DNA of 64,000 nucleotides from a virus. Under the pieces are notes generated by a model. That model made no database searches and had not been told where the DNA came from. It saw only the letters and a list, made by a program, of their open reading frames with translations. This document shows positions 3-38,635 of the stretch, piece after piece. The position numbers and the translations under genes were made by a program. How positions within the stretch are numbered: the first letter of the stretch is position 1; every line of letters begins with the position of its first letter. The stretch lies in the IMG/VR virus record IMGVR_UViG_3300028361_000023, positions 9,817 through 73,816 of that record, one strand, 5' to 3'.

Positions 3-3000
3 AAAGTTCTTACCGAATTTAACGAAGAATTTGCTTTAGACGTTAATACTAAAGATTTTGATGATAGTAAAAGATTTAAAGAAAGTACTTTAAAAGGAGA
101 ACAAGATTTAAAAAACAAAATAAATCAAATAATTAAAACACCAAAAGAACAAAGTTACTCTGGTTTTGATGTTTATTTTGATTTTCGTCAAATTGCTGGA
201 AAATTACATAGACATTTACAAAATACTAATAATAAAAATTTTATAAATAACTTTAGTGATCTTATTTTAATAGATAAAAGTTATGAAAAAATATTAAATA
301 AAGTTAATGAAGATGAAAATTTTAAAATAAAGTTAGCTAATTTTACAAATGTAGAATATATACAACCTAATCTTGATATAATTACTGTAAATTCAAAAGG
401 AATTACAAGTTACAAAACAGAAGATGAAACAAAAGGACAACAACCTGGAATTAAACTTGCTAATAGTTGGATAAATGAATATAAAAAAATAGTAACTATC
501 CGTGATTTACAAAAAGAAAATTTTTTAGACGAAATAACTGACATAGAAAAAGAATTTAAACAACATTTAATAGCAGAAGATTATAATAATGCTGCTAAAA
601 CTTTAGTAGAACTTTTTGCAAATATTAATATAAATATAACTAAAAATGATTTATCTAAATTTATAAAAATAAATCCTGAATTAATAATATCTGAATATTT
701 ATCACAACAATTTGATACTTATAAAGCATTTAAAGACTACGCTATTTCTTATGAAGGTGGCGATACAAAAACTACTTATCCAAATATAAATAAATTATTT
801 AGTCCTTTAAATAATTTTGCTGTTGATATGAGTATTGTAAGTTCTGAAGAAAAAGAATTAAGATACGCAGATGTTAATCAAAATATGTCTAGTGCTGTTG
901 TTTCTAACTACCATTTAAGAAGATTTTTTAATACACTTAAAGGAGATAATGGTAAAGCTTTTCTTGTTGAATCGTTACTTGAAAAAGGTATACAACATTC
1001 TAATTGGTTAATTAGTGGTAAAATAATTATACCTCAATCAGACAAAACAGAAATCATATTTGATAGTAATGGTATACCTGTAATTTTTGATATAAATAAA
1101 GAAGTTGTAAATATTATGATAGACCAACCACTTGCAGGTTCTGTTAATAAATTTACTAGACAAGGTAAAACGTATGAAGATTTCGTAGAAAAAGATTCTA
1201 TGATATTGCAATTTGTAAAATACGTAACGAATAAAGAAAAACTAACTACTAAAACTACTGGTATGAGTATTATAAATATGAATACTCCGTCAGAAGGTAA
1301 AGGTTTTGATTTAACTGTTCCTATAACAACTGTTATACCAAATATGGTAAACGAATTAGAACGAATTGAAAAAATAAACCAACCTAAAGTAGTTAAAAAA
1401 ATAGACCAAAGAGGTCTGCCTATAGAAAGAATATTTTCTATAGATGAACAAAAAGAAGCTGCCTTAAAGTACTTATTTATAGAGACTGAAACAATAGATA
1501 ATAAAGTTGTAGAAAAAAGAAATAGTCCTATACTACAAGCTTTTATGAATATAGCTTTACAAGAAATAGAAAGAATACAAGAAGCTAATGAAGATTTTGG
1601 AGATATACTTGATGGAAAAACTACAGATAGAACTCTTGATATTCCTAAAATGCAAATGTTTTATGATTATAAAACAAAAACCACAGTTAAAAAAGACGGA
1701 ACTAAAATAACTACTTTAATAAAAGGTAATAAATTTAAATTTAATACTTTATCTTATCTAAATGATTTTTTAATTAAAGAAGACGTAGATATAAATAAAC
1801 TAACTAAACAAGACATTATAATAAATGGTGTTTACACTAAGTTAGGTAAAATGTTAAGATACGAAATAATTAAAAATATAGCTAACAAAAGTTTAAACGC
1901 TAGTAAACAATATACAAAACTATATCCTGAATTAAAAAGTTTAAACAAGAATATTGATATTTTTAAAAACGATGCTGCTGAATTTGTTTTAAATTACGAA
2001 ATTACTCAAAATGAATTAAGTAATTTTGTTACAGGTAAATTAGGAGAATTTAAGTCTGGTGTAGATTTTATTAAAAGAAACAAAAAAACAACTACATTAG
2101 GTAAACCTCAAAACGTAGAAAACGAAAACGAACATTATGTTAGTTTGAATTTAAAAGACATAATAGTTGTTAGTCCTAATTTTAATATTCCTATAGAAAT
2201 TACAGATGCACAATCGGTAATAACACTTGGATTATTTGAAGAAAAATCTAAAAGAAGAGGTGCTCTTACTCCTAAAAGAAAAGAAGCTATAGAAAATATA
2301 AAAAATGGAATTAAAACAACTGAACAACTAAACCAATTAAAAAACTTTCATACTTCTTATAGATTTGATAAAAAAATAAATGGTAAAGGTTTAAATAGAA
2401 GAGTATCTAAACAAGTTAAAAATAGTGAATTAGTTGTTCATTCTTCTATGTTTCCTGGAACTCAATTTGGAGAGTTTATGAAATATATAGAAGAATTAGA
2501 AGAAAAAATAGGTAAAAAAATTCAAATAAATGTAAGTTCTGGTCAAAAGCATGGTACTTTTAAAGAAGTAGATATAGTAGACAAAGATGGAAATTTAGAC
2601 CTTAATGATATTACTAAAGAATTATTAGAAACTAGTTTAGATAACAAATATTATAGTGATGAAACAGAACAACTTAGTTACGAAGCTGAAGAAAAAAACC
2701 ACGATAATAATATAGGTTCTCAATTACATAAAGTATTATTAACTAATCTTAGTAATGATGCTGTATATGAAATAGGAAATAAAAAACTTACTGGTCCAGA
2801 AGTTCAAAAATTAATAGGAGAATTACGTTCTATTGATGTTGAAAACGCAGCAAAAGAAGTTGTTAAAGATTTAGAAGACGAAAATGGAAATGTAACAGAA
2901 TTAAGTTTAGCTAGTTTTTTAAGAAATCACGGACTTAAACAAGATTGGGCTAATAATATATTAGATATGTTACAAGAAGACAAAGAAAGAGGACAAACAT

Positions 3001-6000
3001 TGTTACCTTTTTATTTTAGTAGTGTTAATACTAAGATACAACAAGCTCTTACTTCTTTGTTTACTAATAACGTACTTAAAGAAAAATTTAATGGAAGTCA
3101 CAAGTTTCAATTTGCTAATTTTTTAACAGATAAAAAACCTATAACAGAAAGTGAAATTAAAGAAGAAGATTCTTTTAATAGTATAACATGGATAAATGGA
3201 AAAGTAGAAGAACTAACTTCTACTATTTTAGATGGTGAAAGTAGATTACATGCAAAAGTACTTCTACCTTTTACTATGAAAGAATTTATGACTAGTGATG
3301 TTAAAAATCTTGACAAAAAAGCTTTACAAATGTTAGGTTATAGAATACCAACAGAAGGTAAATACTCTGTTTATAGTTTTGAAGTGGTAGGATTTTTACC
3401 TGAAGCTTTAGGTAGTGCTGTAGTTTTACCTAACGATTGGATTGCTTTATCTGGCTCTGATTTTGATATAGATAGTTTATATATTGTTTCTTATTATCTT
3501 GATAATGAAGGTAAAGTTATAGAATATTTAGATGACACTAATAGTACTGTAGAAGAAAGATTTTATAAAGTAAATAAACCTAAACAATTTGAAAAATCTA
3601 AAAAGTTAGTTGAGTTATTAGAAAATAAAAACAAAACAACAGAAGAATTACTTACACAAATAAGAGAAGAATTAGAAGTTAATTTTAATTTTAAAGACTT
3701 AAATAATAAAGAAATCATAAAGCTATTAAAAATAGAGAGCACTAAAAGAGTAACTACTATTGCGGAAGCAAAACAAGAATTACAAAAAGCAGAAGATAAT
3801 AACAATAATTTAGAAGCTGTTTCTATATCTAAAACTATTAAAAACCAAACAGAAACTCTTAATTATCTTAATGATTTAAAAAACTTTTTCTTTGAAAATA
3901 GTAAAGATATATCTCAAGAGACTAATAATCTTTTTGAAAAAGAAATAAAAATCTCTAATGCTCAAAAATTTGAAGAATTTAAAAAACTTCCTATATCTAA
4001 GCAAAATACTAAATTTGCTAGAAAAAATCTAGTATTAGAAAGTTATCAAGAAATTATTTTAAACCCTAATTCACATGCAGAAATCAAAGAAAGATCTAGT
4101 TTTGATTCTATAAAACAAAGTACTACTCGACTTGAAAATCTTTTAAAAAGTAAAAATAAAGAAGAACTTCATCCTTATGATTTTTTTGATCAATTAAAAA
4201 CTACTAGTTTAGTTCTTGCAGGTAAAAAACTTAAAGGGATGGCTGTTCAATTAAAATCTACTACTGATATAGCAAATGCAGTAGGAGGCATAACGTTAAG
4301 TAAACCTTTACAAATAAAACTTAGTAAAAATCGAATAAAAGAAGTAGGCATTAAAAACATTAAAAAAGTATTCGGCAATTCTTTTAACGAAACTACAAGA
4401 ATACTTACTTTAAGTACTATAGGTAAAACAACAACTGGAAGTAATGTAAATATTGATAATATTTTTATAACAGGATTAACTTCTCAAACTACAGCATACA
4501 CTCTTGATATTGTTAAAGAAGGAGGCATTCCTGGAGTTACTACAGATACTCTTACTACTTTTGTTTTACCTGCTATGTTAGGTTTAGAAAATTATGATTT
4601 TTCTATAATGTTACTTAATCAACCAATAATTAAGTATTATTTAACACTAGAAGATAATGAAAAAGGTCATTTTAATACAGGAAACTACGCTAGTAATAGT
4701 CTTTATAGAGATTATAATAATCTTATTAATAGGGCTAAAAACCCAGAAAGTAAATTTGATAAATATATTAAAAAAGAAGACAGAATTAAATTATTAGAAT
4801 TAAATACTGTTCCTGATATAGAAGAACTAGAGAAAAACATAACTATTCAAAAACAAGGAGCTAAAAAAACTTTATCTAATGCTAAATATATAGAATACTT
4901 AGAAAACCAAATAGCTTTATTTAATTATTTTTTATCTGTTCAAGATATTAGTAAAGACATAGCAAATTTAAACGAAGTATTAAGTTATGATAAAATAGGA
5001 GGTGGTCCAACTTTAAATACTACTGTAAATCAAACTTATAAAGTTGTAGATATTGAAGGTAAATTTAGTATTAATGGTATTGATTTAGTAGAAGCTATAT
5101 TTGGTGAAAATTCTGTTTATCCTATGTTAAAAACATTTAAAGAACAAGTAAATGATACTAGTTATAATTTGTTTAAAGATTTCTTTATAACAGAAGGTGA
5201 CACTGTAGTTTCAGAAATTGTTTCTACTGTAAATGGTAAAGATAATCAAGAAGCATTAAAAAAATACATAGTAAATGTTTTTCTTATAGGCAGACCTTCT
5301 AGTCCTACTTATTTTGGCGAACTAGAAAACGATATGATAAGTAAAAGAAGAATACTTAATCCAAAAAACAAAGAAAATATCTCTGCTTTTGATTATCAAT
5401 ACGTAAATATAACTGATTTAAGTCAAAAGAATTTTGAAGTATTTCAAAGTCTTACAACTTCTAATAAATTAGATTTAATTAAAAATCAAATAAGTAAATT
5501 AATTTCAGAAACACAATTATTTGATGGTATTAATTTTAATCCTGAAATTAGACTAAAGTATGATAAGTTAAATTTAGATTTAGATAGTGATGTTGATATA
5601 CTTATAGAAGAATATAAGAAAGCATTAAATTCTAGTAATCCTTTTGTTAAAAATTTAGCTTACGAATTAATAGGTTATGAATACCTTACAACTGGTTTAG
5701 AGTTCGGTAAAGGATTAGCTAAAATAATACCTGCTGAAGTTTTTAGACAAAAACAAAGTGTAGTTGGTAATTTAGACATAAATGGAACCCTTAGAGACAT
5801 ACATAACAAGCTTAAAAATAAAACATACCCTGATCTTTTTGACGTATTAGATGGTTTTTTAAGAAGCAATTATAGTAATGATACTCTTGTTCCTACTTTA
5901 AGCCGTGAAATTAAAGATAATATAAAAAAAGGAGTAGAAAAAGATACTATTTTTAATCTTGATGATTTACCTATAAAAATACAAAAAAATACAATATTTA

Positions 6001-9000
6001 AATATGTAAATAAAGACCAAGAAACTACTGAACTATATAAAAAATTTACAAATGAAAATGATGTATTTTTTAGAGAAGTAAATAAATTAGAAAAATTTGA
6101 AAAAGGGGATGAAAGTTATTATAAACCTAATAATACAGTTAATACTGCTGATACTTTTATGGATAACTTTCAAGAATCTTTATTACATAACAACAATGAA
6201 GCAGTAAGAGAAGCTTTAGTTAAGCAATTTGAAGCTGCTAATTATTCTAAAATAACAGGAGAGTTAGAACATTTTACTAAAGAATTTTTTCATAGGTCTA
6301 TAAAACAAGATTTTACTAAACTAACTGAAAGAGAATTATACTTATCTATTTATGGTAATATAAAGAAAAAACCTTTATTACAAGATATAGTAATGGTTGA
6401 AAATATTCAAATTAATAAATTACCACTAAGTGATCTTGCAAAACTAGCTAAAAGATTTGAGGATAAGTTAGATTTAAGTGATATTGATTTAGTTTCTTTA
6501 CCTGTTTATAAAAAAATAGAAGAACTAGATACCGAAGGTTTATATAGAGGATTACTTCAAATATATTTATACAATCAAGAAAAATCTATATTTCTTAAAG
6601 ACAAACTTGATAAATTAAATATAGATGAAAATACTCTTAATAATCCAAGTAGTAAAAAAGAAGCTACAAAAATATTAGACGAATTAAAAAGATTTGTAGA
6701 AAGTTATAAAGATTTTGAAAATCTTAAATTTTATAAACAAGAAGAAGATACAAATAAACTAAATATACTTCAACAAAAAATAAATACAGTTATAGGTAAA
6801 ATTCAAGATCAAAAAAATCAAATAGAAAATCTTGATGCTAATAGAGATATTAAATTTACCCAACTGCTTGTAGAACTTTACAAGAAAAACTCAACACAAG
6901 ACATAGGTAAAAACGATGAAGAAGTCAAAAATTTTGTAATAAATTCATTAAAGCAACTACACGATATAAGTTTTTTTGCTGAAAAAGGAGATACTATATT
7001 CGATTCTGGTCAAGCTTTTATTAGTATATTAGGAAAAGAAATAAGAACTAATATGGCAGAAGGAAATATAACACAACTTGACTTATTAAAAGAATGGAAT
7101 ACGATATATAAAAAAATAGGAAAAATAGAAAATATACTTGAAACAAAAGAAGTTACAGACGTAAAAGGAACTAGAACTATTAATACTGGTAAATGGGACA
7201 TAACTAAAACAGATGCTATAGGAAAAGAAGTTACAGCTTTTTTTGTTAAACTACAAAAATTAGCTATAGAAGTGTCTCCTGATGGAAGTATTGCACAGGG
7301 TTATTTACCTTCTATACCTAATTTAAAAGGAGACAGTTTAGATACTTTTATAAAAAATAGTTTATCTTATTATGATGATATTTCTTTAAATAATAAAAAT
7401 AATGTAAAAGACAGTTTAGGTACTAAATTTAGTAATATAACATTACCTTTTGATACTCTAATTGTTAAAAAGAAAAGTATAACTTATAGGAAACAAGAAA
7501 AAGACGAAAGTATAGGAGAATATAATTCTAGTGTAATACATGATGTATTTATAACTACTGGTAAAACTTTTAACAGTGTTAAAGACATTAGAACATATAA
7601 TAAACTTGTTGCTGATAGAAATAAAAAACTTAAAAGCGATCTTCATGGTGAAAATATAGACTATAATATGGCAGAAATTATTCCTATATTTATAGAAAAA
7701 ATTACACAAACTAAAAGTAAAGCAGATAATGTAGACTTAGCTAGACTTCTTGTAAATGAAGTTAAAAGCAGAAAAAATATCAAAAAATCTAGACATGAAA
7801 GTTACTTAAACTTAGCTGCTAAAAGGTTTTCTACAAAAGCAGAAGATACTGTAGATGGTAAAAATGCTAAAATAGTTGAACAACTCGATTGGATGCTTGA
7901 TAATACTTTTTATGACGATAAAAATAGAAGTGGAAACGATGCTACTAAATATGGAAGAGTTTTAAGAAACTACACATCTTTATTAGGTATGGGTTTTAAT
8001 GTTTTTAGTGGTCTTAATAACATTATTTATGGGCGTATGCAAACTGCTTTTAAAGCATTAGGTAAAGACGATTATTCTCATAAACATTGGAGAAAAGCAG
8101 GCAAATTATATTATAGAGATGGTGCTTTAGGTAGTTATATAGCAGATGCAGGAAGAAAAGATCAAAAAGTTACAAGTAAACAAAGCGGTATATTTAATTT
8201 ATTTAATATATTAAATAATCAAACTGAAGTTCCTGAACATGGTAAAATAGATCTTACAGCAGAAGAAGATAAGAATAGTATGAAAGCAATAGTTAAAAAT
8301 AATTTTTCTGTACAAATATTAAACAATATAGGAGAACATGCTTTACAAAATAAACTATTAATTGCAATGTTATTAAGTCATAAAATTGTAGATAATAGAG
8401 CAGTTAGTTTTAAACAGTTTATTAATAACAAACTTACTAAAGTTGAAGGTACTATAGAAGAAAAAAAGAAAATTATAGAGAACAACAAATCCGTAGAAAA
8501 AAAGGCGTTAGAAGAATTTGAAAAACTAGATAGTGTTTATAGTTTGTTTGAGTTTAATAAAGAAGAAGGTTATATTAATTGGGATAAAAGTAAACTTACT
8601 AAAAAAGCTTTTGGAGAATTAAGAGAAAAAATACTAAGAAAAAATCACGATCTTCATGGTATTTATAATCAAGAAGATTTATCTGTTATTCATGCTTATG
8701 AAATAGGTAGACTCGTTATGATGTTTCGTAAATGGATGAGACCTGGTTGGAATAAGCGTTTTGGTAGTCATTTTTTAAAAGAAGGTGGTTATAGAGAATT
8801 AGCACAAACTGAAGATAAGGGAACTTATACTAGTTTATATGAATTTGGTACGTCTGCCTATAGAGAAAATAATTTCTCTCAAAACCGTGAAGAGTTTAAT
8901 ACTTTAGCAGCAGTAAGTGCTCTAGTAAGAGATCATATTCTTTTTGTTAAAAATGCAGGTTTTCATTATAATAGTCTTTCTTATAACGATAGAGCTAGAG

Positions 9001-9431
9001 TTAAAGAATCTACAATAGAACTTGTTACGTGGTTTACAAGTATAGGATTATTTGCAGCACTTAAAGGGTGGGGAGAAGACGACGAAGAATTAAAAGAAGC
9101 TTATTTATATAATATGGGTGTTTATCAATTAGATAGATTATCTGTTGAACTCGGTACTTATACTCCTATATATGGTTGGTTTAATGAAGGTCTTAAACTT
9201 TCTGCTTCTCCTTCTGCTAATTCAAATACAGTTTTAAAATTAATAAAACTTATACAAGCTGGTGCAAATTTAAGTGATTTTGAGATTGATCCTACTGATG
9301 TATATAGAGGAGGTAAGTATAAAGAAGAACTTAAAGTTAAAATAAAAGCTATGCAATTAGTTCCTTTTGCTACTCAATATATGAGAATAAAATACCTTAA
9401 AGAAAATAACAAAGCTTTTGCGTTAATGTAA
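3..9431 (+). CDS. Giant virion-packaged RNA polymerase of crAss-like phages (5'-truncated, >3100 aa)
   Basis: The frame is open from base 3 with no stop before the listed Met at 828. It contains GYRIPTEGKYS...GSDFDIDSLY (DFDID at 3459-3473), the catalytic motif of crAss-like RNAPs such as phi14:2 gp66. Confidence 0.93.
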   Translation, partial: KVLTEFNEEFALDVNTKDFDDSKRFKESTLKGEQDLKNKINQIIKTPKEQSYSGFDVYFDFRQIAGKLHRHLQNTNNKNFINNFSDLILIDKSYEKILNKVNEDENFKIKLANFTNVEYIQPNLDIITVNSKGITSYKTEDETKGQQPGIKLANSWINEYKKIVTIRDLQKENFLDEITDIEKEFKQHLIAEDYNNAAKTLVELFANININITKNDLSKFIKINPELIISEYLSQQFDTYKAFKDYAISYEGGDTKTTYPNINKLFSPLNNFAVDMSIVSSEEKELRYADVNQNMSSAVVSNYHLRRFFNTLKGDNGKAFLVESLLEKGIQHSNWLISGKIIIPQSDKTEIIFDSNGIPVIFDINKEVVNIMIDQPLAGSVNKFTRQGKTYEDFVEKDSMILQFVKYVTNKEKLTTKTTGMSIINMNTPSEGKGFDLTVPITTVIPNMVNELERIEKINQPKVVKKIDQRGLPIERIFSIDEQKEAALKYLFIETETIDNKVVEKRNSPILQAFMNIALQEIERIQEANEDFGDILDGKTTDRTLDIPKMQMFYDYKTKTTVKKDGTKITTLIKGNKFKFNTLSYLNDFLIKEDVDINKLTKQDIIINGVYTKLGKMLRYEIIKNIANKSLNASKQYTKLYPELKSLNKNIDIFKNDAAEFVLNYEITQNELSNFVTGKLGEFKSGVDFIKRNKKTTTLGKPQNVENENEHYVSLNLKDIIVVSPNFNIPIEITDAQSVITLGLFEEKSKRRGALTPKRKEAIENIKNGIKTTEQLNQLKNFHTSYRFDKKINGKGLNRRVSKQVKNSELVVHSSMFPGTQFGEFMKYIEELEEKIGKKIQINVSSGQKHGTFKEVDIVDKDGNLDLNDITKELLETSLDNKYYSDETEQLSYEAEEKNHDNNIGSQLHKVLLTNLSNDAVYEIGNKKLTGPEVQKLIGELRSIDVENAAKEVVKDLEDENGNVTELSLASFLRNHGLKQDWANNILDMLQEDKERGQTLLPFYFSSVNTKIQQALTSLFTNNVLKEKFNGSHKFQFANFLTDKKPITESEIKEEDSFNSITWINGKVEELTSTILDGESRLHAKVLLPFTMKEFMTSDVKNLDKKALQMLGYRIPTEGKYSVYSFEVVGFLPEALGSAVVLPNDWIALSGSDFDIDSLYIVSYYLDNEGKVIEYLDDTNSTVEERFYKVNKPKQFEKSKKLVELLENKNKTTEELLTQIREELEVNFNFKDLNNKEIIKLLKIESTKRVTTIAEAKQELQKAEDNNNNLEAVSISKTIKNQTETLNYLNDLKNFFFENSKDISQETNNLFEKEIKISNAQKFEEFKKLPISKQNTKFARKNLVLESYQEIILNPNSHAEIKERSSFDSIKQSTTRLENLLKSKNKEELHPYDFFDQLKTTSLVLAGKKLKGMAVQLKSTTDIANAVGGITLSKPLQIKLSKNRIKEVGIKNIKKVFGNSFNETTRILTLSTIGKTTTGSNVNIDNIFITGLTSQTTAYTLDIVKEGGIPGVTTDTLTTFVLPAMLGLENYDFSIMLLNQPIIKYYLTLEDNEKGHFNTGNYASNSLYRDYNNLINRAKNPESKFDKYIKKEDRIKLLELNTVPDIEELEKNITIQKQGAKKTLSNAKYIEYLENQIALFNYFLSVQDISKDIANLNEVLSYDKIGGGPTLNTTVNQTYKVVDIEGKFSINGIDLVEAIFGENSVYPMLKTFKEQVNDTSYNLFKDFFITEGDTVVSEIVSTVNGKDNQEALKKYIVNVFLIGRPSSPTYFGELENDMISKRRILNPKNKENISAFDYQYVNITDLSQKNFEVFQSLTTSNKLDLIKNQISKLISETQLFDGINFNPEIRLKYDKLNLDLDSDVDILIEEYKKALNSSNPFVKNLAYELIGYEYLTTGLEFGKGLAKIIPAEVFRQKQSVVGNLDINGTLRDIHNKLKNKTYPDLFDVLDGFLRSNYSNDTLVPTLSREIKDNIKKGVEKDTIFNLDDLPIKIQKNTIFKYVNKDQETTELYKKFTNENDVFFREVNKLEKFEKGDESYYKPNNTVNTADTFMDNFQESLLHNNNEAVREALVKQFEAANYSKITGELEHFTKEFFHRSIKQDFTKLTERELYLSIYGNIKKKPLLQDIVMVENIQINKLPLSDLAKLAKRFEDKLDLSDIDLVSLPVYKKIEELDTEGLYRGLLQIYLYNQEKSIFLKDKLDKLNIDENTLNNPSSKKEATKILDELKRFVESYKDFENLKFYKQEEDTNKLNILQQKINTVIGKIQDQKNQIENLDANRDIKFTQLLVELYKKNSTQDIGKNDEEVKNFVINSLKQLHDISFFAEKGDTIFDSGQAFISILGKEIRTNMAEGNITQLDLLKEWNTIYKKIGKIENILETKEVTDVKGTRTINTGKWDITKTDAIGKEVTAFFVKLQKLAIEVSPDGSIAQGYLPSIPNLKGDSLDTFIKNSLSYYDDISLNNKNNVKDSLGTKFSNITLPFDTLIVKKKSITYRKQEKDESIGEYNSSVIHDVFITTGKTFNSVKDIRTYNKLVADRNKKLKSDLHGENIDYNMAEIIPIFIEKITQTKSKADNVDLARLLVNEVKSRKNIKKSRHESYLNLAAKRFSTKAEDTVDGKNAKIVEQLDWMLDNTFYDDKNRSGNDATKYGRVLRNYTSLLGMGFNVFSGLNNIIYGRMQTAFKALGKDDYSHKHWRKAGKLYYRDGALGSYIADAGRKDQKVTSKQSGIFNLFNILNNQTEVPEHGKIDLTAEEDKNSMKAIVKNNFSVQILNNIGEHALQNKLLIAMLLSHKIVDNRAVSFKQFINNKLTKVEGTIEEKKKIIENNKSVEKKALEEFEKLDSVYSLFEFNKEEGYINWDKSKLTKKAFGELREKILRKNHDLHGIYNQEDLSVIHAYEIGRLVMMFRKWMRPGWNKRFGSHFLKEGGYRELAQTEDKGTYTSLYEFGTSAYRENNFSQNREEFNTLAAVSALVRDHILFVKNAGFHYNSLSYNDRARVKESTIELVTWFTSIGLFAALKGWGEDDEELKEAYLYNMGVYQLDRLSVELGTYTPIYGWFNEGLKLSASPSANSNTVLKLIKLIQAGANLSDFEIDPTDVYRGGKYKEELKVKIKAMQLVPFATQYMRIKYLKENNKAFALM

Positions 9432-29752: not shown

Positions 29753-30097
29753 TTAATTGTTTAAATCTTTAATTTTTAATAATCTTTTTCTAAGATTATG
29801 GCTTTTAGGAGATATTCTTCCTTCTTTAGGTATTTTTATACTAAGACCTATAGACCAACCTTTTTTAGTTTGTACTATTTCCATAGAATTTAAAGTATAA
29901 ACGTGTTCTTTATATACTTTAACAGTTCCATCAGTAAAATGTTTACTCTTTTTTTTAATAATAGGCAACATAAAACTATTTTTTGGTATAGAACCACTAA
30001 AATGTTTTACAGATATACCTTTTTTAATTGTTTCACCATTATCCCCGATTACAGGAGGAACATGTACAAATTTTCTACCACGTGTGTTTTTTTTCAT
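29753..30097 (-). CDS. Basic hypothetical protein
   Basis: 114 aa ORF. Confidence 0.65.
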   Translation of the reverse strand: MKKNTRGRKFVHVPPVIGDNGETIKKGISVKHFSGSIPKNSFMLPIIKKKSKHFTDGTVKVYKEHVYTLNSMEIVQTKKGWSIGLSIKIPKEGRISPKSHNLRKRLLKIKDLNN

Positions 30098-30115
30098 TTT
30101 TTTTTTATTTTTATT

Positions 30116-31672: not shown

Positions 31673-31966
31673 TTAAGCTACAGATAAAGTAAAACCAGGA
31701 ATAGTTTCTTCTTTAAAAGGTATAGGTGTAAATGTAGGTATACTAATTACTTGAACGTTAAGTTTAGCTAAAGCTTCAATAATTAATTCAGGATTTTCTA
31801 TTCCTACAATTATTACACTTTTTTTGTTAGTTACTACATTTTTTATAGCTTCTATTTGTTTAGTTCTTTTATTGATACTTTTACAGTTACCAATAGACCA
31901 TCTCATTGTTGGTTGTTTTTTTAATCTATTCATTTTTAGTTGTTTGTTAAATTTATAATACCTCAA
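31673..31966 (-). CDS. Hypothetical protein
   Basis: ORF on the coding strand; the likely start is MNRLKK. Confidence 0.6.
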   Translation of the reverse strand: MRYYKFNKQLKMNRLKKQPTMRWSIGNCKSINKRTKQIEAIKNVVTNKKSVIIVGIENPELIIEALAKLNVQVISIPTFTPIPFKEETIPGFTLSVA

Positions 31967-32282
31967 TAAAGAGGTCGCACAATATGAAGTTGAGTAGTAA
32001 TTAATAACTCTACGTTGTTAGTTATTATTTATACATCTTCATTAGGACTAATACTTTCATATTAGAACGCAAAATAGTAATTATTACGAATTACCTTACT
32101 ATAATGCTGCCAGATTAATCAATAGTTCTCCAACTATATCATAAAATTTATAATTACCTATACGGTATTAATAATGTAACTTGCCTTATTACAAACTATT
32201 TAAGATTTTTTCCTCTCTAGTAGTTTTCCTCTCTTATCAACTTGGTAAAGGTTAATATTGAGTCAATCAAAGAACATAATTC

Positions 32283-32762
32283 TTATTCTTCTTGTTCGTC
32301 TTTAGTCGCTGCTTCTGTAATACTACTATCAGAAGGTGTATCTACAGCAGTTTTCCAATTAATAAGATCATATTCAATATTATTTTGATCTAAAATAGAT
32401 TTTAAATAATTTATATCATCTACTCTTTCAGCGTATTCAGACGTTAAAACATCATAATCCATACATTTATTAAGGATTTCTGTTTTACGATTTTTAATTT
32501 CTATTATATGATTTTCATTACGTAACTTTAAAAGACGTATTTTATCTTCTAAATCGTGTCTAATATTGATATTGTGTTTAAAATCAGCTTTAAGTCTATT
32601 ATGATTCATAAGTAATAAAGCTACAAAAGCTCTACTACCTCCTTTAATTCTGTTCAAAGCCGCACTAGTAATTTCGACATTACCTACTAACACTGAAGGA
32701 ACGTTAATTACTTTACCTTTGTAAATAAATTTTATTTTTTGTTTTTGTTTTTTATTTTTCAT
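32283..32762 (-). CDS. Hypothetical coiled-coil protein
   Basis: 159 aa ORF. Confidence 0.7.
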   Translation of the reverse strand: MKNKKQKQKIKFIYKGKVINVPSVLVGNVEITSAALNRIKGGSRAFVALLLMNHNRLKADFKHNINIRHDLEDKIRLLKLRNENHIIEIKNRKTEILNKCMDYDVLTSEYAERVDDINYLKSILDQNNIEYDLINWKTAVDTPSDSSITEAATKDEQEE

Positions 32763-32923
32763 TTGTTTTTGTTTGTTAATAAAGAAGCTCTCCTACTTCT
32801 ACTTGATGATAAGTAGTTCGGAGAGCATCAATAACTTAATATTAGTACTTCTACTTTTACTACAAGTGTCCTTATTCTGTAATCTTCTAGTAATATTAAG
32901 ATTAGTATTTTAATTAATTTGTA

Positions 32924-33148
32924 TTAATTATTTTGTTCATTTCTACCGTCTACAAAACCTCTATTATAACCGTCAGAATAACTATCATCATCTTCTTGCA
33001 TATTAGGTAATGGTGCATAAGGAGCATAAGGAGCTATACAATTTTCTATTTGATAACAATAACCTTCTTCCCAACCATCTTCATATCCTCTTTCAAAATC
33101 TGTTGTCATACTTACCATAGTAAGCATTAATATTATTAATAATTTCAT
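32924..33148 (-). CDS. Small exported acidic protein with GYxxG repeats
   Basis: Signal-peptide-like start; ERGYEDGWEEGY and SDGYNRGFVDG. Confidence 0.7.
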   Translation of the reverse strand: MKLLIILMLTMVSMTTDFERGYEDGWEEGYCYQIENCIAPYAPYAPLPNMQEDDDSYSDGYNRGFVDGRNEQNN

Positions 33149-33171
33149 TTTATTTATTTTATTTTATTTAT

Positions 33172-33282
33172 TTATCTTAATTCAGGTGGATAATTATCAC
33201 TATCATCAAACATCCAATATATTATTACACCAATTACTATTAGTGTTAATGTTATTTTTATTATTTTTATTATTAACACCAT
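33172..33282 (-). CDS. 36-aa single-TM peptide (not in ORF track)
   Basis: MVLIIKIIKITLTLIVIGVIIYWMFDDSDNYPPELR*; overlaps the upstream micro-ORF. Confidence 0.5.
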   Translation of the reverse strand: MVLIIKIIKITLTLIVIGVIIYWMFDDSDNYPPELR

Positions 33283-33410
33283 CTTTTATTACAGTCAAAA
33301 CATTGAAAACAATTAAAAGATTTAATTAAATCCATAAACTGATTGCAACAAGGTGATTTTGGTTTGTTTTTAAGTTTGTTTATCATTTTGTTTATTATTT
33401 TCTTTATCAT
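33273..33410 (-). CDS. Cys-rich Zn-ribbon-like micro-protein (not in ORF track)
   Basis: ...MINKLKNKPKSPCCNQFMDLIKSFNCFQCFDCNKRWC*; start at 33410 or 33386. Confidence 0.55.
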   Translation of the reverse strand: MIKKIINKMINKLKNKPKSPCCNQFMDLIKSFNCFQCFDCNKRWC

Positions 33411-33550
33411 AATTTTTTTAAATTAAAATACAACAGGTTTCGATGATTTTTGTGCTACCTCTACATTGGTAGTTCCTGTTGTATTATATTATAAATTGTC
33501 TTTAATCCATTCTATAATAGAACAGATGTTTGTTTATAAATTTGATTGTT

Positions 33551-33757
33551 TCATAAAAGTAAATATATAATTGTTAAATAAAGTAATATTATACTAATAG
33601 TTACATATAATATTCTATTAGGTACAATATCTTCTGTTTTTTTATCTATATAATTAACTATATATATAGCAGGTACAAAAATAACTGCTAAACTTACTAT
33701 AAGAAATATAATAATAAGTATTATAAGTCCTATACATTCTTTTGGTGTTGATATCAT
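33551..33757 (-). CDS. Small two-TM membrane protein
   Basis: Two hydrophobic helices. Confidence 0.6.
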   Translation of the reverse strand: MISTPKECIGLIILIIIFLIVSLAVIFVPAIYIVNYIDKKTEDIVPNRILYVTISIILLYLTIIYLLL

Positions 33758-33780
33758 AATTTTATTTTTAATGTTAAATG

Positions 33781-34098
33781 TTAATTTTTTATTACTATTG
33801 ATTCAATTATTGGTATTACAGTAGAATAATCTCTAACCCCATTATAATAAGAATCATCATTTGCATCTATTAATTGAACAAGACGTATATTATAATATAA
33901 CTCATCATAAACATCACAAGTATCTTGTTGTAATGTTTCATTTCCCTCTTTTGTAATGGTTTGACCTAAAACTTCTGCTAATACTCCTAAACAACAATGA
34001 GAATTATCTTTTTTAAGTCGTCCATTTGTTTGAGTATAATTACCACTTTTTAAAGCTTCTAACCATTTATCTTTTATTTCTTGTGTTATTTTATTCAT
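33781..34098 (-). CDS. Conserved phage hypothetical protein
   Basis: KWLEALKSGNYTQ..G.L.....CCLGVL pattern, which I recall from other phages. Confidence 0.75.
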   Translation of the reverse strand: MNKITQEIKDKWLEALKSGNYTQTNGRLKKDNSHCCLGVLAEVLGQTITKEGNETLQQDTCDVYDELYYNIRLVQLIDANDDSYYNGVRDYSTVIPIIESIVIKN

Positions 34099-34384
34099 TA
34101 AGCTTATAATTTTTTAATTTAATTCTATGTGCTTTACATTTATCAGGTCTTTTAGTAACACCTGTTATGTATTCTTCTATTCCATTATAAGAATATTCTA
34201 AATCTAAAGCTTTACCTTTACCATCAGTTATTTCCTCTATAATAAGTTCTTCTTTGTATAACACAGTTATTACATTAAGAAAATAAGTTATATCACCTAA
34301 AATAACAACAGCTTCTACTCCAGATTTTAAGTGATTTATAACTTCATTAGCTGTTGCTGTAATTTTACTTTTATTTCTTTTCAT
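34091..34384 (-). CDS. Hypothetical protein
   Basis: 97 aa ORF. Confidence 0.65.
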   Translation of the reverse strand: MKRNKSKITATANEVINHLKSGVEAVVILGDITYFLNVITVLYKEELIIEEITDGKGKALDLEYSYNGIEEYITGVTKRPDKCKAHRIKLKNYKLNE

Positions 34385-35090
34385 AATTACCTATTCCATT
34401 TATTTATTGTTTAAGTTTTGTAAGTGCTAATATATACTAATTCCATACATATTAATAATTATTGTTGAAAAAAGTTTATTTATTATTTCCAGATGTTCTG
34501 AGTTAAGAATGTTGTTATTATTAAAGTGATTGTTTTGGTTAGCTGGGTGAGTTGATAAATTATTATTGGGTTGAAGTTATATATTAGTAGTGGAATGATG
34601 TTTTGGGTTATAATTGAGAGGTTGTTTTATATGTGGTAGTATAAGTCTACGCTAATAACTGCTATCACTATTAAATCTATCACCACCAAAATCATTATTA
34701 AAATTAATTAACACTTATCCACAACTAATTAACATCACTATCAATTACCATTTATTTATTGTAACTTCGATCTATAGATGCGAAAGCAACTAAATAATCA
34801 TTATTAATAATTGTATTAAAGGAATATAATATATTTTTTTTAAGAGGAAAAAAAGAAAACAAAAATTAAAAATTTTCTTATTTCTTTTTTTAAATTTTTT
34901 TATTAATTATTATTATTATCTCCAAAATCAATATTTTATTTATCTGATTAATTAATAACTAAATAACTATGTTTGAATCTATTATTGGAAATTTACAAAT
35001 AATATCTCTAAAATCATTTTATTTATTATTATTATCTTCAAAATTATTATAACTCATTCCCTTTCCTCTCCCCTCTCCCCCCAAATAAAA

Positions 35091-35468
35091 TTAATCTTCT
35101 TTTTCTAAATTATCATTGATAGAAATACCAAGTTGATTTCCAATTTCAAGAGATTCAACAATTTCTGATGATTTTACGAAATTTTCAAATAAAATTAATG
35201 TTCTATTAGTTCCAACACTATTAACAGTAATTAATTCTTTTATTTGAAAATTTGTTTTTTTTATTTTTATAATATCAAGTTCAATATTTATTCTAGCTTC
35301 AACTTCAGTATTGAATAATGTAATATTAAAGGGAATTAATACATTATTACCTTTAAAAGAAGGTGTAGATATTATAATACCATTAAATTTATCAATAGTA
35401 TGAGTGTTTTTTAAGTTAGTGAAACCTCTAATGGTTACAAAACTATAAGTTGTAAATTTATTTATCAT
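35091..35468 (-). CDS. Hypothetical protein
   Basis: 125 aa ORF preceded by the 21-bp motif. Confidence 0.6.
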   Translation of the reverse strand: MINKFTTYSFVTIRGFTNLKNTHTIDKFNGIIISTPSFKGNNVLIPFNITLFNTEVEARINIELDIIKIKKTNFQIKELITVNSVGTNRTLILFENFVKSSEIVESLEIGNQLGISINDNLEKED

Positions 35469-35508
35469 TTTTTATGTTTATGTTTATTATTATGTTTATT
35501 ATTATTTT

Positions 35509-35548
35509 GATGTTTTGGGTTTAAACCGATGTTTTGGGGTTAAACCGA
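35509..35548. repeat. 19-bp tandem repeat containing the GGTTTAAACC palindrome
   Basis: GATGTTTTGGGTTTAAACC / GATGTTTTGGGGTTAAACC. Confidence 0.85.
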
Positions 35549-35592
35549 ATAACCACAACAATCAGACTCGAATTTAACGAGTACCTGTGTCG

Positions 35593-35613
35593 CAAAAACA
35601 AGTAGATGTAGTA
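35593..35613 (-). promoter_or_regulatory. 21-bp intergenic motif, copy 1 (TACTACATCTACTTGTTTTTG)
   Basis: Identical copy at 36389-36409; both copies are intergenic and upstream of - strand genes. Confidence 0.6.
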
Positions 35614-35680
35614 TTATCGGTAATATAGGGAAGAAAAGAAGATAAATTTAAAAACAATTTTAGAAAAGTATATTAGAAAC

Positions 35681-35715
35681 AAAAAATGCAAGCATATCCG
35701 AAGATACACTTGCAT
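35681..35715 (-). terminator. Rho-independent terminator
   Basis: On the - strand: ATGCAAGTGTATC-TTCG-GATATGCTTGCAT-TTTTT (UUCG loop). Confidence 0.8.
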
Positions 35716-35725
35716 ATTAATTGGA

Positions 35726-36283
35726 TTACATACCCATAGCTGCTTCCATTTCAGCTTCAATAGACATTGCAGGAGTTGCAGAGTGACTAGAAGCTACCAT
35801 AGTTTTAACAGCATTTTGATTAGCTGCAAGAGTAGTTAAACTCCAAGCTGGTAAACCTATTTCGTAATAAGTTTTTTCACCACTATTAAGGTTCTTACGA
35901 AATGAAGCAGTTTTATAGATAAATATATCACCTATTTGAGCTTTATCTCCGGCTTTTACAGTAATAATTTTACCGTCACGTGTAAGTTCAGTATCACGAG
36001 AAGCACCTTCAGTAACAAGAGTACTATTAGTGTCTAAAACTAGCTTATGACCGGCTTTATAATCTACGAAATCAGCTGTAAGAGTACAACCTTTAAGAGC
36101 AGCAGTAATTATACCACTAGCATCAGTAGTTTTAGTACCAAGTTGAGAAGCAAACTCTCTTTTAAGAGCATTTGCTTCAGAAGCTCTTAAATTAATTGAT
36201 TTATCGTTACTAAGTCTAACGATAGAAAATTCTCCATTACTGGCATCCTTGATGTCAGTAATTGTAAACGTTTGTTTGTTCAT
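35726..36283 (-). CDS. Hypothetical protein, probably highly expressed early gene
   Basis: Likely start MNKQTF at 36283 (track start 36337); it has its own upstream motif and terminator. Confidence 0.8.
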   Translation of the reverse strand: MNKQTFTITDIKDASNGEFSIVRLSNDKSINLRASEANALKREFASQLGTKTTDASGIITAALKGCTLTADFVDYKAGHKLVLDTNSTLVTEGASRDTELTRDGKIITVKAGDKAQIGDIFIYKTASFRKNLNSGEKTYYEIGLPAWSLTTLAANQNAVKTMVASSHSATPAMSIEAEMEAAMGM

Positions 36284-36388
36284 AATGTTTAAATGTTTAA
36301 AAGTTGAGTTGTTGAGAAAAATAATATACTTTAACATTTCAGCTAAAAAGTTCGTTAATTATAAAATCAATTATATTAAGGAGTATAT

Positions 36389-36409
36389 CAAAAACAAGTA
36401 GATGTAGTA
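36389..36409 (-). promoter_or_regulatory. 21-bp intergenic motif, copy 2
   Basis: Identical to 35593-35613. Confidence 0.6.
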
Positions 36410-36436
36410 ATCTCTGATTATGTTGTAATAGTGTAG

Positions 36437-36757
36437 TTAACCTACACTATTATCAAGATTATTAAAAGCTTTAGCTATGATATTATTCATAGCTTGTTTC
36501 CTTTTCTTTTGCTCATCTATCTCTTCACGTACTGTACGTATAGTAACTACATCTACAGTAGTAGTATCATACTCCTTAGTACTAAGATAAATAAGTTTCA
36601 ATGCTACAATAGTAAGCACAACACTAACAATTGTCATTGTCATAATAATACTAGCACTAGTATTAGTAACAAGTATAAGAAATACAATAGCATACCAAGA
36701 GAGACATACTAATGTTGTTGTAATGATACGTAGTGTATCCATAAATTTATTTGTCAT
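36437..36757 (-). CDS. Two-TM membrane protein
   Basis: Two hydrophobic helices plus a charged tail. Confidence 0.7.
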   Translation of the reverse strand: MTNKFMDTLRIITTTLVCLSWYAIVFLILVTNTSASIIMTMTIVSVVLTIVALKLIYLSTKEYDTTTVDVVTIRTVREEIDEQKKRKQAMNNIIAKAFNNLDNSVG

Positions 36758-36966
36758 AATTTTCTAATTAAGTTTTAAGTTAAATGTTTATTGAAATGTA
36801 CGGGGGTATGTTCATTTCAAAATTAAGTAGCGGGGGTATCATCTAGGTGGGTTACACGTTAGACAAAAACATCTTCTTTAAAAATAATAAAATAATAAAA
36901 AATTTACAAATCACGAATCATAAAACATAATCATCCCAATCTTTTTAATTATCTTCATAAGCATCC

Positions 36967-36998
36967 AAAAAATCCCCACCAAATTAATGATGAGGATT
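36967..36998 (-). terminator. Rho-independent terminator
   Basis: On the - strand: AATCCTCATCA-TTAATT-TGGTGGGGATT-TTTT. Confidence 0.7.
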
Positions 36999-37034
36999 AA
37001 CGGTAGCGAAACCATCAGCGTCCGTAACAGACAA

Positions 37035-37121
37035 CTATTTTACAACCCAATTACCAATCTTTATCTTATAATCAATAATAGGAATATCTTTAAACTCTAA
37101 CAAACAATATAAAGTAATCAT
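37035..37121 (-). CDS. 28-aa micro-ORF (not in track)
   Basis: MITLYCLLEFKDIPIIDYKIKIGNWVVK*; ATGA overlap with the upstream ORF. Confidence 0.35.
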   Translation of the reverse strand: MITLYCLLEFKDIPIIDYKIKIGNWVVK

Positions 37122-37285
37122 AGCTTTAAATACAAGTAATAAAACATCATTACTAATACGCTAGTAGTTACTATATAAAAATATAAAAACAAAACTTTAT
37201 TAGTTTTTTCAGCTCTTTCTATATAAGCTTTATATAAATAATAACTTCTAGCAAATAAGCTTACTATTAATATAATATCGTACAT
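37118..37285 (-). CDS. 55-aa two-TM micro-protein (not in track)
   Basis: MYDIILIVSLFARSYYLYKAYIERAEKTNKVLFLYFYIVTTSVLVMMFYYLYLKL*. Confidence 0.5.
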   Translation of the reverse strand: MYDIILIVSLFARSYYLYKAYIERAEKTNKVLFLYFYIVTTSVLVMMFYYLYLKL

Positions 37286-37368
37286 AATTTAGTTATTATA
37301 AAAACTACAAATACTATAACTAATAACACTAAAACAAATATATCTTCAGTTGAATATTTATTGTTCAT
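37267..37368 (-). CDS. 33-aa single-TM peptide (not in track)
   Basis: MNNKYSTEDIFVLVLLVIVFVVFIITKLCTILY*; the ATG directly follows the stop of the 37369 gene. Confidence 0.5.
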   Translation of the reverse strand: MNNKYSTEDIFVLVLLVIVFVVFIITKLCTILY

Positions 37369-37620
37369 TTATCTATAACTAATTAATATTCTATACCACT
37401 TAACAAACCAATTATGTCTAACAGCAGGTAAACCTTTTGCCATATTACGTAAAGTATTATTATCAATTAATGCAGCAGTAAGTTTTCCTTTCACATAATA
37501 TTTAATTTCAATTAAAGGATTAGAAATAAGACCTTCATATTCATCAATAGACACTATTCTTACTAGGAGAATCTCACTGTTAGTATTTATTTTAATATTT
37601 ATAAATTTATTCTTTTTCAT
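37369..37620 (-). CDS. Hypothetical protein
   Basis: 83 aa ORF. Confidence 0.65.
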   Translation of the reverse strand: MKKNKFINIKINTNSEILLVRIVSIDEYEGLISNPLIEIKYYVKGKLTAALIDNNTLRNMAKGLPAVRHNWFVKWYRILISYR

Positions 37621-37637
37621 ATTATGTTAATTTTTAT

Positions 37638-37823
37638 TTAAACAGTTTGTATTGTATTAATTACATCCTCTTCTTTGATACAATGATTTTCACCTCTTAT
37701 AGTATCTACTCCGTAATGACCTTTCATTGTTTTATAAATAATACCAACTTTAATAGTGCCTTTAATACCATTAATATTATCTATTGCAATAAAAGATATT
37801 CTAGTTCCTATTTTGTGTTTCAT
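37638..37823 (-). CDS. Small hypothetical beta-rich protein
   Basis: 61 aa ORF. Confidence 0.6.
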   Translation of the reverse strand: MKHKIGTRISFIAIDNINGIKGTIKVGIIYKTMKGHYGVDTIRGENHCIKEEDVINTIQTV

Positions 37824-37831
37824 AAAAAATG

Positions 37832-37874
37832 TTCTTCTTATAGGCAGATTTAATAGGTCTGCCTATAGAAAGAA
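37832..37874. terminator. Stem-loop (terminator, attenuator or processing site)
   Basis: TATAGGCAGA...TCTGCCTATA inverted repeat with no immediate U-tract. Confidence 0.45.
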
Positions 37875-37925
37875 TACTTTTAAAGCATCACAAACAATAG
37901 TAATGCTTTATTGACATAAACAAAC

Positions 37926-38564
37926 TTATCCTTTATAGAATAACAATTTAACAAAGTTCATTTGAGAATCTAAACCCGTATTAACCGCATGACTAAACAA
38001 TCTTTGAGTGTTTTGATTTTTATCTCTACTTTCATTAAAAGCATTAGCAGCATTTAATACTTTAGCAAAACTAGTTTTAATAAATTCAACTTTTTCATCT
38101 CCACTTGGATTAAATGTAAGTCCGACTAATTTACCACCAAAAGTTTCATGAAGATTAGTTTCGTCTTTACTTTCTTGTATTGTTTCTTTTTCAGTAGTTG
38201 TAGAAGTAGTTGTAGAAGTAAGCATTGGAATACAAGCTTCGACTATACTTTTAAATATAAAATCTTTAGCTTTTTCTTTATTTTCGAGTTTATCATAAGG
38301 AATTAAACTAGGATGAGTTTTCTTTATCAAGTCTTTTTCTGTACCATAAACAAAACCATCTTCTATTTTAAATTTCATCCAATTTTCGTGCATTTCAGCA
38401 GCAGTAACATTAGGGTTATCTATTCGGTATTTAACACTATTAACAGCACTATCTTTAATATTTTGAGAAACATTATCCCAATCTACTTGGCTATTGTCTC
38501 CTAAACTTTCACAATAGCCTTTATTGGCTTGGTGAGCGATTTTTGCTATGTCTATTATATTCAT
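37926..38564 (-). CDS. RyR-domain protein fused to an Acb2/Tad1-like helical hairpin
   Basis: HENWMKFKIEDGFVYGTEKD..KKTHPSLIPYDKL..KEK.KD is a RyR repeat. A TSTT linker follows, then C-terminal VGLTFNPSGDEKV...RLFSHAVNTGLDSQMNFVK. Likely start MNIID at 38564. Confidence 0.8.
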   Translation of the reverse strand: MNIIDIAKIAHQANKGYCESLGDNSQVDWDNVSQNIKDSAVNSVKYRIDNPNVTAAEMHENWMKFKIEDGFVYGTEKDLIKKTHPSLIPYDKLENKEKAKDFIFKSIVEACIPMLTSTTTSTTTEKETIQESKDETNLHETFGGKLVGLTFNPSGDEKVEFIKTSFAKVLNAANAFNESRDKNQNTQRLFSHAVNTGLDSQMNFVKLLFYKG

Positions 38565-38568
38565 AATA

Positions 38569-38597
38569 CAAATGTAATCTTTTTTACTAAAATGCAA
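38569..38597 (-). promoter_or_regulatory. Bacteroidota sigma-70 promoter (TTG-N18-TACATTTG)
   Basis: The -7 element ends 4 nt before the ATG at 38564. Confidence 0.65.
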
Positions 38598-38635
38598 CAT
38601 TATTATATACTATTTTTAAAAAATTTTAAAGAAAT

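Follow-up and report, generated by a model that had tools for sequence, protein, structure and literature searches.

We analysed a stretch of 64,000 nucleotides of viral DNA (IMG/VR record IMGVR_UViG_3300028361_000023, positions 9,817 to 73,816), which we call the window and number from its first nucleotide. The gene studied here lies on its minus strand and encodes a protein of 212 amino acids, in which an N-terminal RyR domain of a family known to act against Thoeris immunity is joined by a flexible linker to a C-terminal domain that we assign, on sequence relationships, to the Acb2 family of phage sponges. The gene and its parts are organised as follows.

37926 to 38564, minus strand: coding sequence of the RyR-Acb2 fusion, 212 amino acids, from the list of open reading frames (ORFs) and the translation, with its stop codon at 37926-37928.
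38223 to 38564, minus strand: N-terminal RyR/Repeat12 domain (RyDEP / RyR Tad type), residues 1-114, supported by PF02026, identity to CB1 gp68, the AlphaFold2 model and Foldseek.
38145 to 38222, minus strand: flexible low-complexity linker, residues 115-140, TSTTTSTTT and then an E/K-rich part, with a predicted local distance difference test score (pLDDT) below 50 at residues 119-128 and with insertions and deletions (indels) in homologues.
37929 to 38144, minus strand: C-terminal Acb2-family domain, residues 141-212, comprising a TFGGKLVGLTFNPSGD segment and a hairpin of two long helices, assigned from homologues matching PF24729, from Table S1 of Hadary et al. 2025 and from BFVD.
38598 to 38600, minus strand: alternative upstream ATG, which would add 12 residues and is probably unused.

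The full ORF extends from 37926 to 38600 on the minus strand. We preferred the start at 38564 to the upstream ATG because the closest relative, the metagenomic protein P0003, has an equivalent start and because the 212-residue form, which is an entry in a public protein collection, begins there. The full-length AlphaFold2 model (mean pLDDT 91.9, predicted template modelling score 0.58) consists of two confident domains connected by the poorly predicted part of the linker, and we attribute the low template modelling score to the absence of a fixed mutual orientation between them. The linker contains LTSTTTSTTTEKE and is variable among homologues, with a 4-residue indel in P0003 and a 21-residue deletion in P0290. 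The C-terminal domain, which runs from TFGGKLVGLTFNPSGDEKV to QRLFSHAVNTGLDSQMNFVKLLFYKG, is 94% identical to that of P0003 (68 of 72 positions), against 73% for the N-terminal domain and 67%, with an indel, for the linker. It is therefore the most constrained part of the protein and, judged from this comparison of sequences, is under purifying selection. An initial annotation, made from the letters and translated ORFs of the window, had described an N-terminal RyR repeat, a low-complexity linker of TSTT type and a separate C-terminal domain of about 72 residues. This division is upheld: the linker sequence is present and is predicted to be disordered, residues 141-212 fold on their own with pLDDT above 94, and the C-terminal domain is a mobile module found mostly as a stand-alone protein.

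The N-terminal repeat is recognised by several independent searches. Pfam family PF02026 matches residues 53-101 (43.8 bits for a cut-off of 27.4, E 3.2e-11), three PHROG families of unknown function together cover residues 1-126, and searches of the PDB return Repeat12 chains of ryanodine receptors with E-values down to 7e-20. In the AlphaFold2 model the domain is all-helical (helices 3-20, 34-49, 55-68 and 95-114, pLDDT above 95), and Foldseek pairs it with Repeat12 of RyR3 and with an RyR-like protein of B. thetaiotaomicron (probability 1.00, best E 7.5e-4). The phage branch of this family has an experimentally defined function. Gp68 of Pectobacterium phage vB_PatP_CB1, named RyR Tad, is a dimeric sponge with a dissociation constant of 43 nM for 1''-3' glycocyclic ADP-ribose (gcADPR); it contacts its ligand through H129/W132, K147/H154 and K170/D171, whose mutation lowers binding about 100-fold, and the W132A variant is inactive (10.64898/2026.06.04.730250). 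BLASTP aligns our domain to gp68 with 50% identity over 103 residues (E 2e-35), and six of the six contact residues are kept, as H59/W62, K77/H84 and K100/D101.

Another member, gp78 of Mycobacterium phage DyoEdafos (RyDEP, PDB 35TM), is a glycosidase acting against Thoeris (PMC13232231). Its similarity to our domain in BLASTP is 31% identity over 51 residues, and its H75/W78/H100/D117 align to H59/W62/H84/D101. When eight other RyDEP homologues were tested, six bound Thoeris signals and none cleaved them, and two, H4 and H7, were nanomolar sponges that rescued phage from type I Thoeris (PMC13232231). Gp68 of CB1 is apparently the same protein as H7. The phage RyR domain family is thus anti-Thoeris, as shown by two 2026 preprints (PMC13232231; 10.64898/2026.06.04.730250). 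The proposal that the RyR domain marks a signal-binding anti-defence module stands on homology, but the novelty it implied does not, the two preprints having already made the case. Likewise, the preservation of every contact residue of a gcADPR sponge agrees with the suggestion that the domain binds derivatives of ADP-ribose, whereas cyclic oligoadenylates, the other ligands put forward, find no support for the RyR domain. Within the same family, the RyR protein of Pectobacterium phage phiA41 (L166:173-718), close to RyR Tad, carries an Arg (HESR) at the position of W132; this copy may have altered or lost binding, given that W132A abolishes the anti-Thoeris activity of gp68.

The C-terminal domain was assigned through its relatives. 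A pattern scan of IMG/VR returned 111 of them, mostly stand-alone ORFs of 75-95 residues, and an exhaustive profile search retrieved 1648 protein clusters (defined at 50% identity) at E<=1e-3 and 685 at E<=1e-10, mostly of 75-110 residues. In nearly all of the longer proteins of this search the domain sits at the C-terminus. A profile built from 63 relatives had no match among PDB sequences. When members were scanned one by one, PF24729 (Acb2_Tad1_hairpin) was the only Pfam family to recur (12 of 63 and 18 of 150 proteins, best E 8.7e-7). The chain of intermediates includes Pmp11_0039 of a Pasteurella phage, which matches the C-terminal domain in tblastn (E 2e-7) and itself scores 42.5 bits on PF24729, above the cut-off of 27 bits. 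It also includes homologues with the same architecture, P0290 (204 residues, 35.5 bits) and P0277 (215 residues, 26.6 bits, just below the cut-off).

In the four-way full-length alignment A4, the invariant positions of the domain are TFGxKxVGxxFNPS, R188, S191, A193, Q201, M202, V205 and K206. The hairpin motif is canonical in P0277 and P0290 (R..SVAIT…AQMW/R.VK) and divergent in the protein studied here. The degenerate RxxSxAxTxLxxAxMWxxK-like motif that the initial annotation had pointed to is therefore a real feature of the family: it corresponds to R188, S191, A193, M202 and K206, all invariant in the four homologues. In BFVD, the two best matches to the model of the domain are named "Acb2/Tad1 hairpin domain-containing" in UniProt, the top one with a template modelling score of 0.90 on the target and 38% identity. 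Finally, Hadary et al. 2025 compiled in their Table S1 the Acb2 homologues that HHpred relates to 7UQ2 or 8H39 (10.1101/2025.08.24.671296). The list includes the subclade of our domain (…TFGEKLVGLTFNPSGDPKV…AQM..VK.LT…), with the signature FGEKLVGLxFNPS…AQMNVVK, together with intermediates carrying a canonical hairpin (10.1101/2025.08.24.671296). We file the domain as Acb2 because intermediates reach PF24729 and because its subclade is listed as Acb2 in that study; on these sequence relationships it is a divergent Acb2. A Tad1 identity was also considered and rejected, the 72-residue module being all-helical, with no antiparallel beta-sheet domain, and its stand-alone relatives having only 75-95 residues. 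The original description of an Acb2/Tad1-like hairpin is thus retained for Acb2, through PF24729 and the intermediates, and abandoned for Tad1.

In its model, the domain begins with two short helices, after which come two long antiparallel ones (157-179 and 184-208), all with pLDDT above 94, and Foldseek found no match to this model in the PDB at E<=0.001. A symmetric homodimer of residues 138-212 (residues 17-91 of the construct P0002, window positions 37929-38201) is predicted to form through both long helices, with an interaction prediction score from aligned errors (ipSAE) of 0.52 against 0.28 for the best control. Of 30 proteins solved as pairs, 20 reach the ipSAE mark, as does 1 of 23 solved as single chains. 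Three runs agreed on 100% of the contacts, with a partner pLDDT of at least 88. This score may reflect a memory of solved Acb2 structures, or a likeness to them.

The Acb2 of PaMx33 has two kinds of pockets, with Y11 and K26 serving dinucleotides and R67 and T74 serving trinucleotides. Aligning the motifs by eye, F151 would correspond to Y11, K163 to K26 (with a spacing of 12 instead of 15), R188 to R67 and N195 to T74. The distance from R188 to M202 is 14 residues, the same as in PaMx33-like sequences. F151, K163 and R188 are invariant in alignment A4. Throughout the subclade the consensus has Asn after the Met ("AQMN"), and we therefore do not regard this residue as a lesion. Four tested proteins of the FGEK-VG-FN type could be recognised by motif in Table S2 of Hadary et al. 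2025, namely #15, #24, #36 and #41 (10.1101/2025.08.24.671296). Numbers 41 and 36 inhibit the cyclic GMP-AMP (cGAMP) CBASS (cyclic oligonucleotide-based antiphage signalling system) of E. albertii, #15 inhibits the CBASS of Y. aleksiciae, and none of the four inhibits Thoeris (10.1101/2025.08.24.671296). By manual reading, #41 aligns to our domain without gaps and matches it at about 26 of 72 positions.

Taken together, these results lead us to favour, with moderate confidence, a protein that sequesters two classes of immune signals: gcADPR through a dimer of the RyR domain and cyclic oligonucleotides of CBASS through an oligomer of the Acb2-like domain, with the flexible linker in between. 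The RyR/Repeat12 domain would act as a sponge, most likely in the form of a back-to-back dimer of the kind that its family builds through helices alpha1 and alpha4, and its pocket of H59/W62, K77/H84 and K100/D101 would bind the Thoeris signals 1''-3' and 1''-2' gcADPR. The divergent Acb2 domain would oligomerise, most likely through its two long helices (its solved relatives are interlocked hexamers), and the oligomer would bind cyclic di- or trinucleotides of CBASS. A linker of about 25 residues would let both assemblies form independently. Since each vertex of the Acb2 hexamer brings together the N-terminal segments of two protomers, the RyR domains could be paired at these vertices. Expression would be early, to judge from the position of the gene at the head of the replication arm.

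Several observations weigh against this interpretation. The C-terminal part (residues 122-212) has no Pfam match at E<=10, no PHROG match and no match among PDB sequences, and PF24729 matches nothing in the whole phage record. T4 Vs.4 (7uq2_A) ranks only 17th of 48,161 chains in VIA-align (Z 6.7, root-mean-square deviation 3.0, 61 aligned residues), tied with unrelated helical hairpins, so that the fold does not decide the identity of the domain. A comparison with T4 Vs.4 by hhalign, using either the single sequence or an alignment of about 120 close homologues, was non-significant (P 0.067), even though the alignment with the T4 Vs.4 subfamily pairs F with Y, P with P and A-Q-M with A-S-M. 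That subfamily is too narrow and distant, which is why we made the link to Acb2 through intermediates. The putative equivalent of T74 is an Asn, and the assignment of F151 and K163 was made by eye, with a spacing three residues shorter than in PaMx33. Among the tested proteins, #24 (LTYGEKAVGLSFNPSGDEKV), whose N-terminal motif is by eye the closest, inhibits none of seven systems (10.1101/2025.08.24.671296). Sequence alone cannot separate a RyR sponge from a glycosidase, the catalytic dyad being also kept in non-catalytic homologues. Lastly, ten small ORFs near the gene were tested, and not one of them matches a known anti-defence family.

The point concerning the catalytic residues raises the question of whether, within the same architecture, the RyR domain could be an enzyme. 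The catalytic dyad of DyoEdafos RyDEP (H75 and D117) corresponds to H59 and D101, and its ligand residues W78 and H100 to W62 and H84, which speaks for a glycosidase. We nevertheless hold this to be unlikely. None of the eight other RyDEP homologues cleaves its ligand despite the high conservation, and the domain is much closer to the sponge H7 / RyR Tad (50% identity) than to the enzyme (31% over 51 residues); for these two reasons we rated the sponge above the enzyme. Moreover, NAD+ salvage genes of the NARP1 type were not seen among the ten small neighbours tested. An alternative without anti-defence function is that the protein senses nucleotides or regulates, with the RyR domain binding ATP or ADP for the metabolism of the phage. 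Crystal structures of RyR3 Repeat12 do contain ATP, ADP or AMP-PCP, but phage members of both families act on immune signals wherever they were tested, which makes such a role highly improbable.

The C-terminal domain could also be a scaffold derived from Acb2 that has lost nucleotide binding and raises the avidity or stability of the RyR sponge by oligomerisation. Its hairpin motif is degenerate relative to canonical Acb2 (W to N and T to N), it lacks a direct Pfam match, #24 has no phenotype against seven systems and the long helices mediate the predicted self-association, all of which would fit a scaffold. Yet the Asn of AQMN, being the consensus of a large stand-alone subclade (the 685 clusters at the stricter threshold), is no product of decay, and stand-alone proteins of about 78 residues require a function of their own. 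Furthermore, three of the four recognised tested members of the subclade inhibit CBASS, and conservation within the domain is highest in the FNPS…K segment, from which the dinucleotide pocket of Acb2 is built. We thus find the loss of binding quite improbable and retain dual sequestration as our preferred reading. A bolder version of dual sequestration, which we regard as doubtful, would have a single particle neutralise both Thoeris and CBASS, with a core formed by an Acb2-like hexamer, three RyR dimers and three kinds of pockets, and would have the FNPS…AQMN subclade perhaps bind a signal beyond the tested panel, pointing to an unassigned immune messenger. We raise this additional signal because #24, the member with the closest N-terminal motif, inhibits none of the seven systems.

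The flanks of the gene carry two further features.

38602 to 38630, minus strand: sigma-70-like hexamers, TTTAAA-17-TATAAT, present at a frequency not above chance.
37881 to 37910, no strand assigned: imperfect hairpin of 11 bp (inverted repeat I7, 91% complementary) just 3' of the stop codon, a candidate transcript end.

The initial annotation credited the gene with its own host-type promoter and, as a consequence, with independence from the phage RNA polymerase. The hexamer pair is present, but sites of this type do not exceed their frequency in shuffled sequence (13 within 2.5 kb, with 17.7 +/- 4.7 in the shuffles), so neither the promoter nor the escape from the phage polymerase is supported. 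Bacteroidota, the likely host group, are not known to use this consensus. The promoter consensus of Bacteroidota type is TAnnTTTG, and a match to it, TACATTTG at 38576-38569, ends 4 nt before the ATG; we take it to be a chance occurrence. A terminator scan of the region found nothing. A larger inverted repeat (37812-37894) separates the fusion gene from the next ORF (61 residues, start at 37823) and overlaps the start of this ORF; its 37-nt arms are 78% complementary and include a perfect 9-bp core (ATAGGCAGA / TCTGCCTAT, 9 nt apart). Elsewhere in the arm, an exact 21-bp motif, TACTACATCTACTTGTTTTTG, occurs on the minus strand at 35593-35613 and 36389-36409, each time upstream of a minus-strand gene, when 0.01 copies are expected by chance. 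This motif may be a phage promoter or operator; the fusion gene is not preceded by a copy.

With about 25% G+C, the window is AT-rich; it comes from a 73.8-kb IMG/VR contig with an estimated completeness of 87%. Its portal gene (43426-45747, plus strand) is closest to those of crAss-like phages, of Flavobacterium psychrophilum phages and of Cellulophaga phage phi14:2. A giant ORF that is open at the start of the window (3..9431, plus strand, more than 3142 residues) shares 25% identity with the "putative RNAP catalytic subunit" (RNAP, RNA polymerase) of crAss002 and has no match among PDB sequences. The phage is therefore crAss-like by both its portal and its giant ORF, and the N4-like identity that the giant ORF had suggested was rejected on the same matches. 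At about 74 kb and 25% G+C, the phage is smaller and more AT-rich than the matched crAss-like records (93-100 kb). As the phage is crAss-like and about 16 kb separate the fusion gene from the primase gene, the "anti-signalling hotspot" located between primase and virion RNA polymerase in N4-like phages has no direct application here.

The fusion gene is the first of the minus-strand replication arm. It is followed by about 7 kb of small orphan ORFs and then by genes for a Dda-like helicase, DNA polymerase, helicase, primase, ligase and rIIA. The plus-strand arm begins 87 bp away and carries genes for an exonuclease, the large terminase subunit and the portal. No significant Pfam match was obtained for ten small ORFs of the minus-strand arm (31676-37823), nor any PHROG match for the five that were run against that collection; because these ORFs have no family matches, the surrounding block cannot be called an anti-defence island. 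In three related loci, too, the terminase gene has the fusion gene (L073 and L090) or a gene with an Acb2-like domain (L041) within about 1-3 kb.

The fusion is rare but not unique to this phage. Two of 80 RyR ORFs from IMG/VR (L088 and L090) carry the C-terminal domain, locus L073 is a third fusion, and the metagenomic proteins P0003, P0277 and P0290 have the same organisation, with a possible overlap between the metagenomic and the IMG/VR examples. The Acb2-like domain also occurs behind other partners: PF21825 (Sequestin), a WDGH domain, DUF5522 (4 loci in the set A2 and 1 protein in A3), a UVR motif and methyltransferase-like domains. A domain of PHROGs 9763/6628 precedes it in P0005. Other RyR ORFs have C-terminal extensions of about 90-170 residues that do not match the Acb2-like profile (L086/L087, 209 residues; L095, 221; L102, 220; L108, 286; L122, 219; L136, 254), and these may represent additional modules joined to RyR sponges. 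A separate case is locus L084 of Providencia phage PS3 (Autographiviridae; positions 29980-30177 of its record), where an Acb2-like gene encoding 65 residues stands between two genes for internal virion/core proteins, an unusual position for an anti-defence gene.

Text searches of the literature, which took in both RyR papers, the paper on sponge fusions and that on Acb2 diversity, found no mention of a RyR-Acb2 pairing. The anti-defence function of RyR, Acb2 itself and the fusion of sponges were known already, so that only the pairing appears unreported and the novelty is modest; the parts, the targets and the strategy of fusion are all published, and no new principle is involved. The RyR anti-Thoeris module nevertheless joins the mix-and-match fusion of sponges already known for Tad2, Acb4 and Sequestin, and its range is extended to crAss-like phages, probably of Bacteroidota. 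The protein is also a natural test case of whether a dimer-forming and a hexamer-forming sponge can share one polypeptide. Finally, it draws attention to a very large and barely tested Acb2 subclade (the 1648 clusters).

Among characterised systems, RyR Tad of CB1 shares with the fusion protein the RyR/Repeat12 domain (50% identical over 103 residues, with the six contact residues kept) and the attachment of a second, unrelated domain. In gp68, however, the extra domain is an N-terminal beta-fold with no known activity, where here a C-terminal Acb2-family module is found, and gp68 adjoins the primase gene of an N4-like phage, whereas the fusion gene heads the replication arm of a crAss-like one. 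DyoEdafos RyDEP belongs to the same Pfam family, its H75/W78/H100/D117 being kept as H59/W62/H84/D101, but it is a single-domain glycosidase of 138 residues encoded in a NARP1 NAD+ salvage operon, and such an operon was not seen here.

Acb2 (PaMx33 p26, PDB 8H2J; T4 Vs.4, PDB 7UQ2) resembles the C-terminal domain, as modelled, in placing an aromatic-x-Pro segment at the N-terminus, ahead of two long antiparallel helices. The last helix of our domain keeps the putative equivalent of R67 and the A/S-Q-M…K pattern, its stand-alone relatives have about 75-95 residues, and self-association is predicted. In contrast to Acb2, it is fused behind a RyR domain, is too divergent to match PF24729 directly and has Asn both where Acb2 has the Trp after the Met and at the putative position of the trinucleotide-pocket Thr. 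The closest parallels in organisation are the fused sponges, i.e., Acb4-Sequestin (gp59 of P. aeruginosa phage Ab09), Tad2-Acb4 (Pasteurella phage Pm86) and the fusions of PF21825 with Tad2 or Acb4, those tested blocking both Thoeris and CBASS. They too combine an anti-Thoeris and an anti-CBASS module in one polypeptide with a linker, but pair families other than RyR and Acb2.

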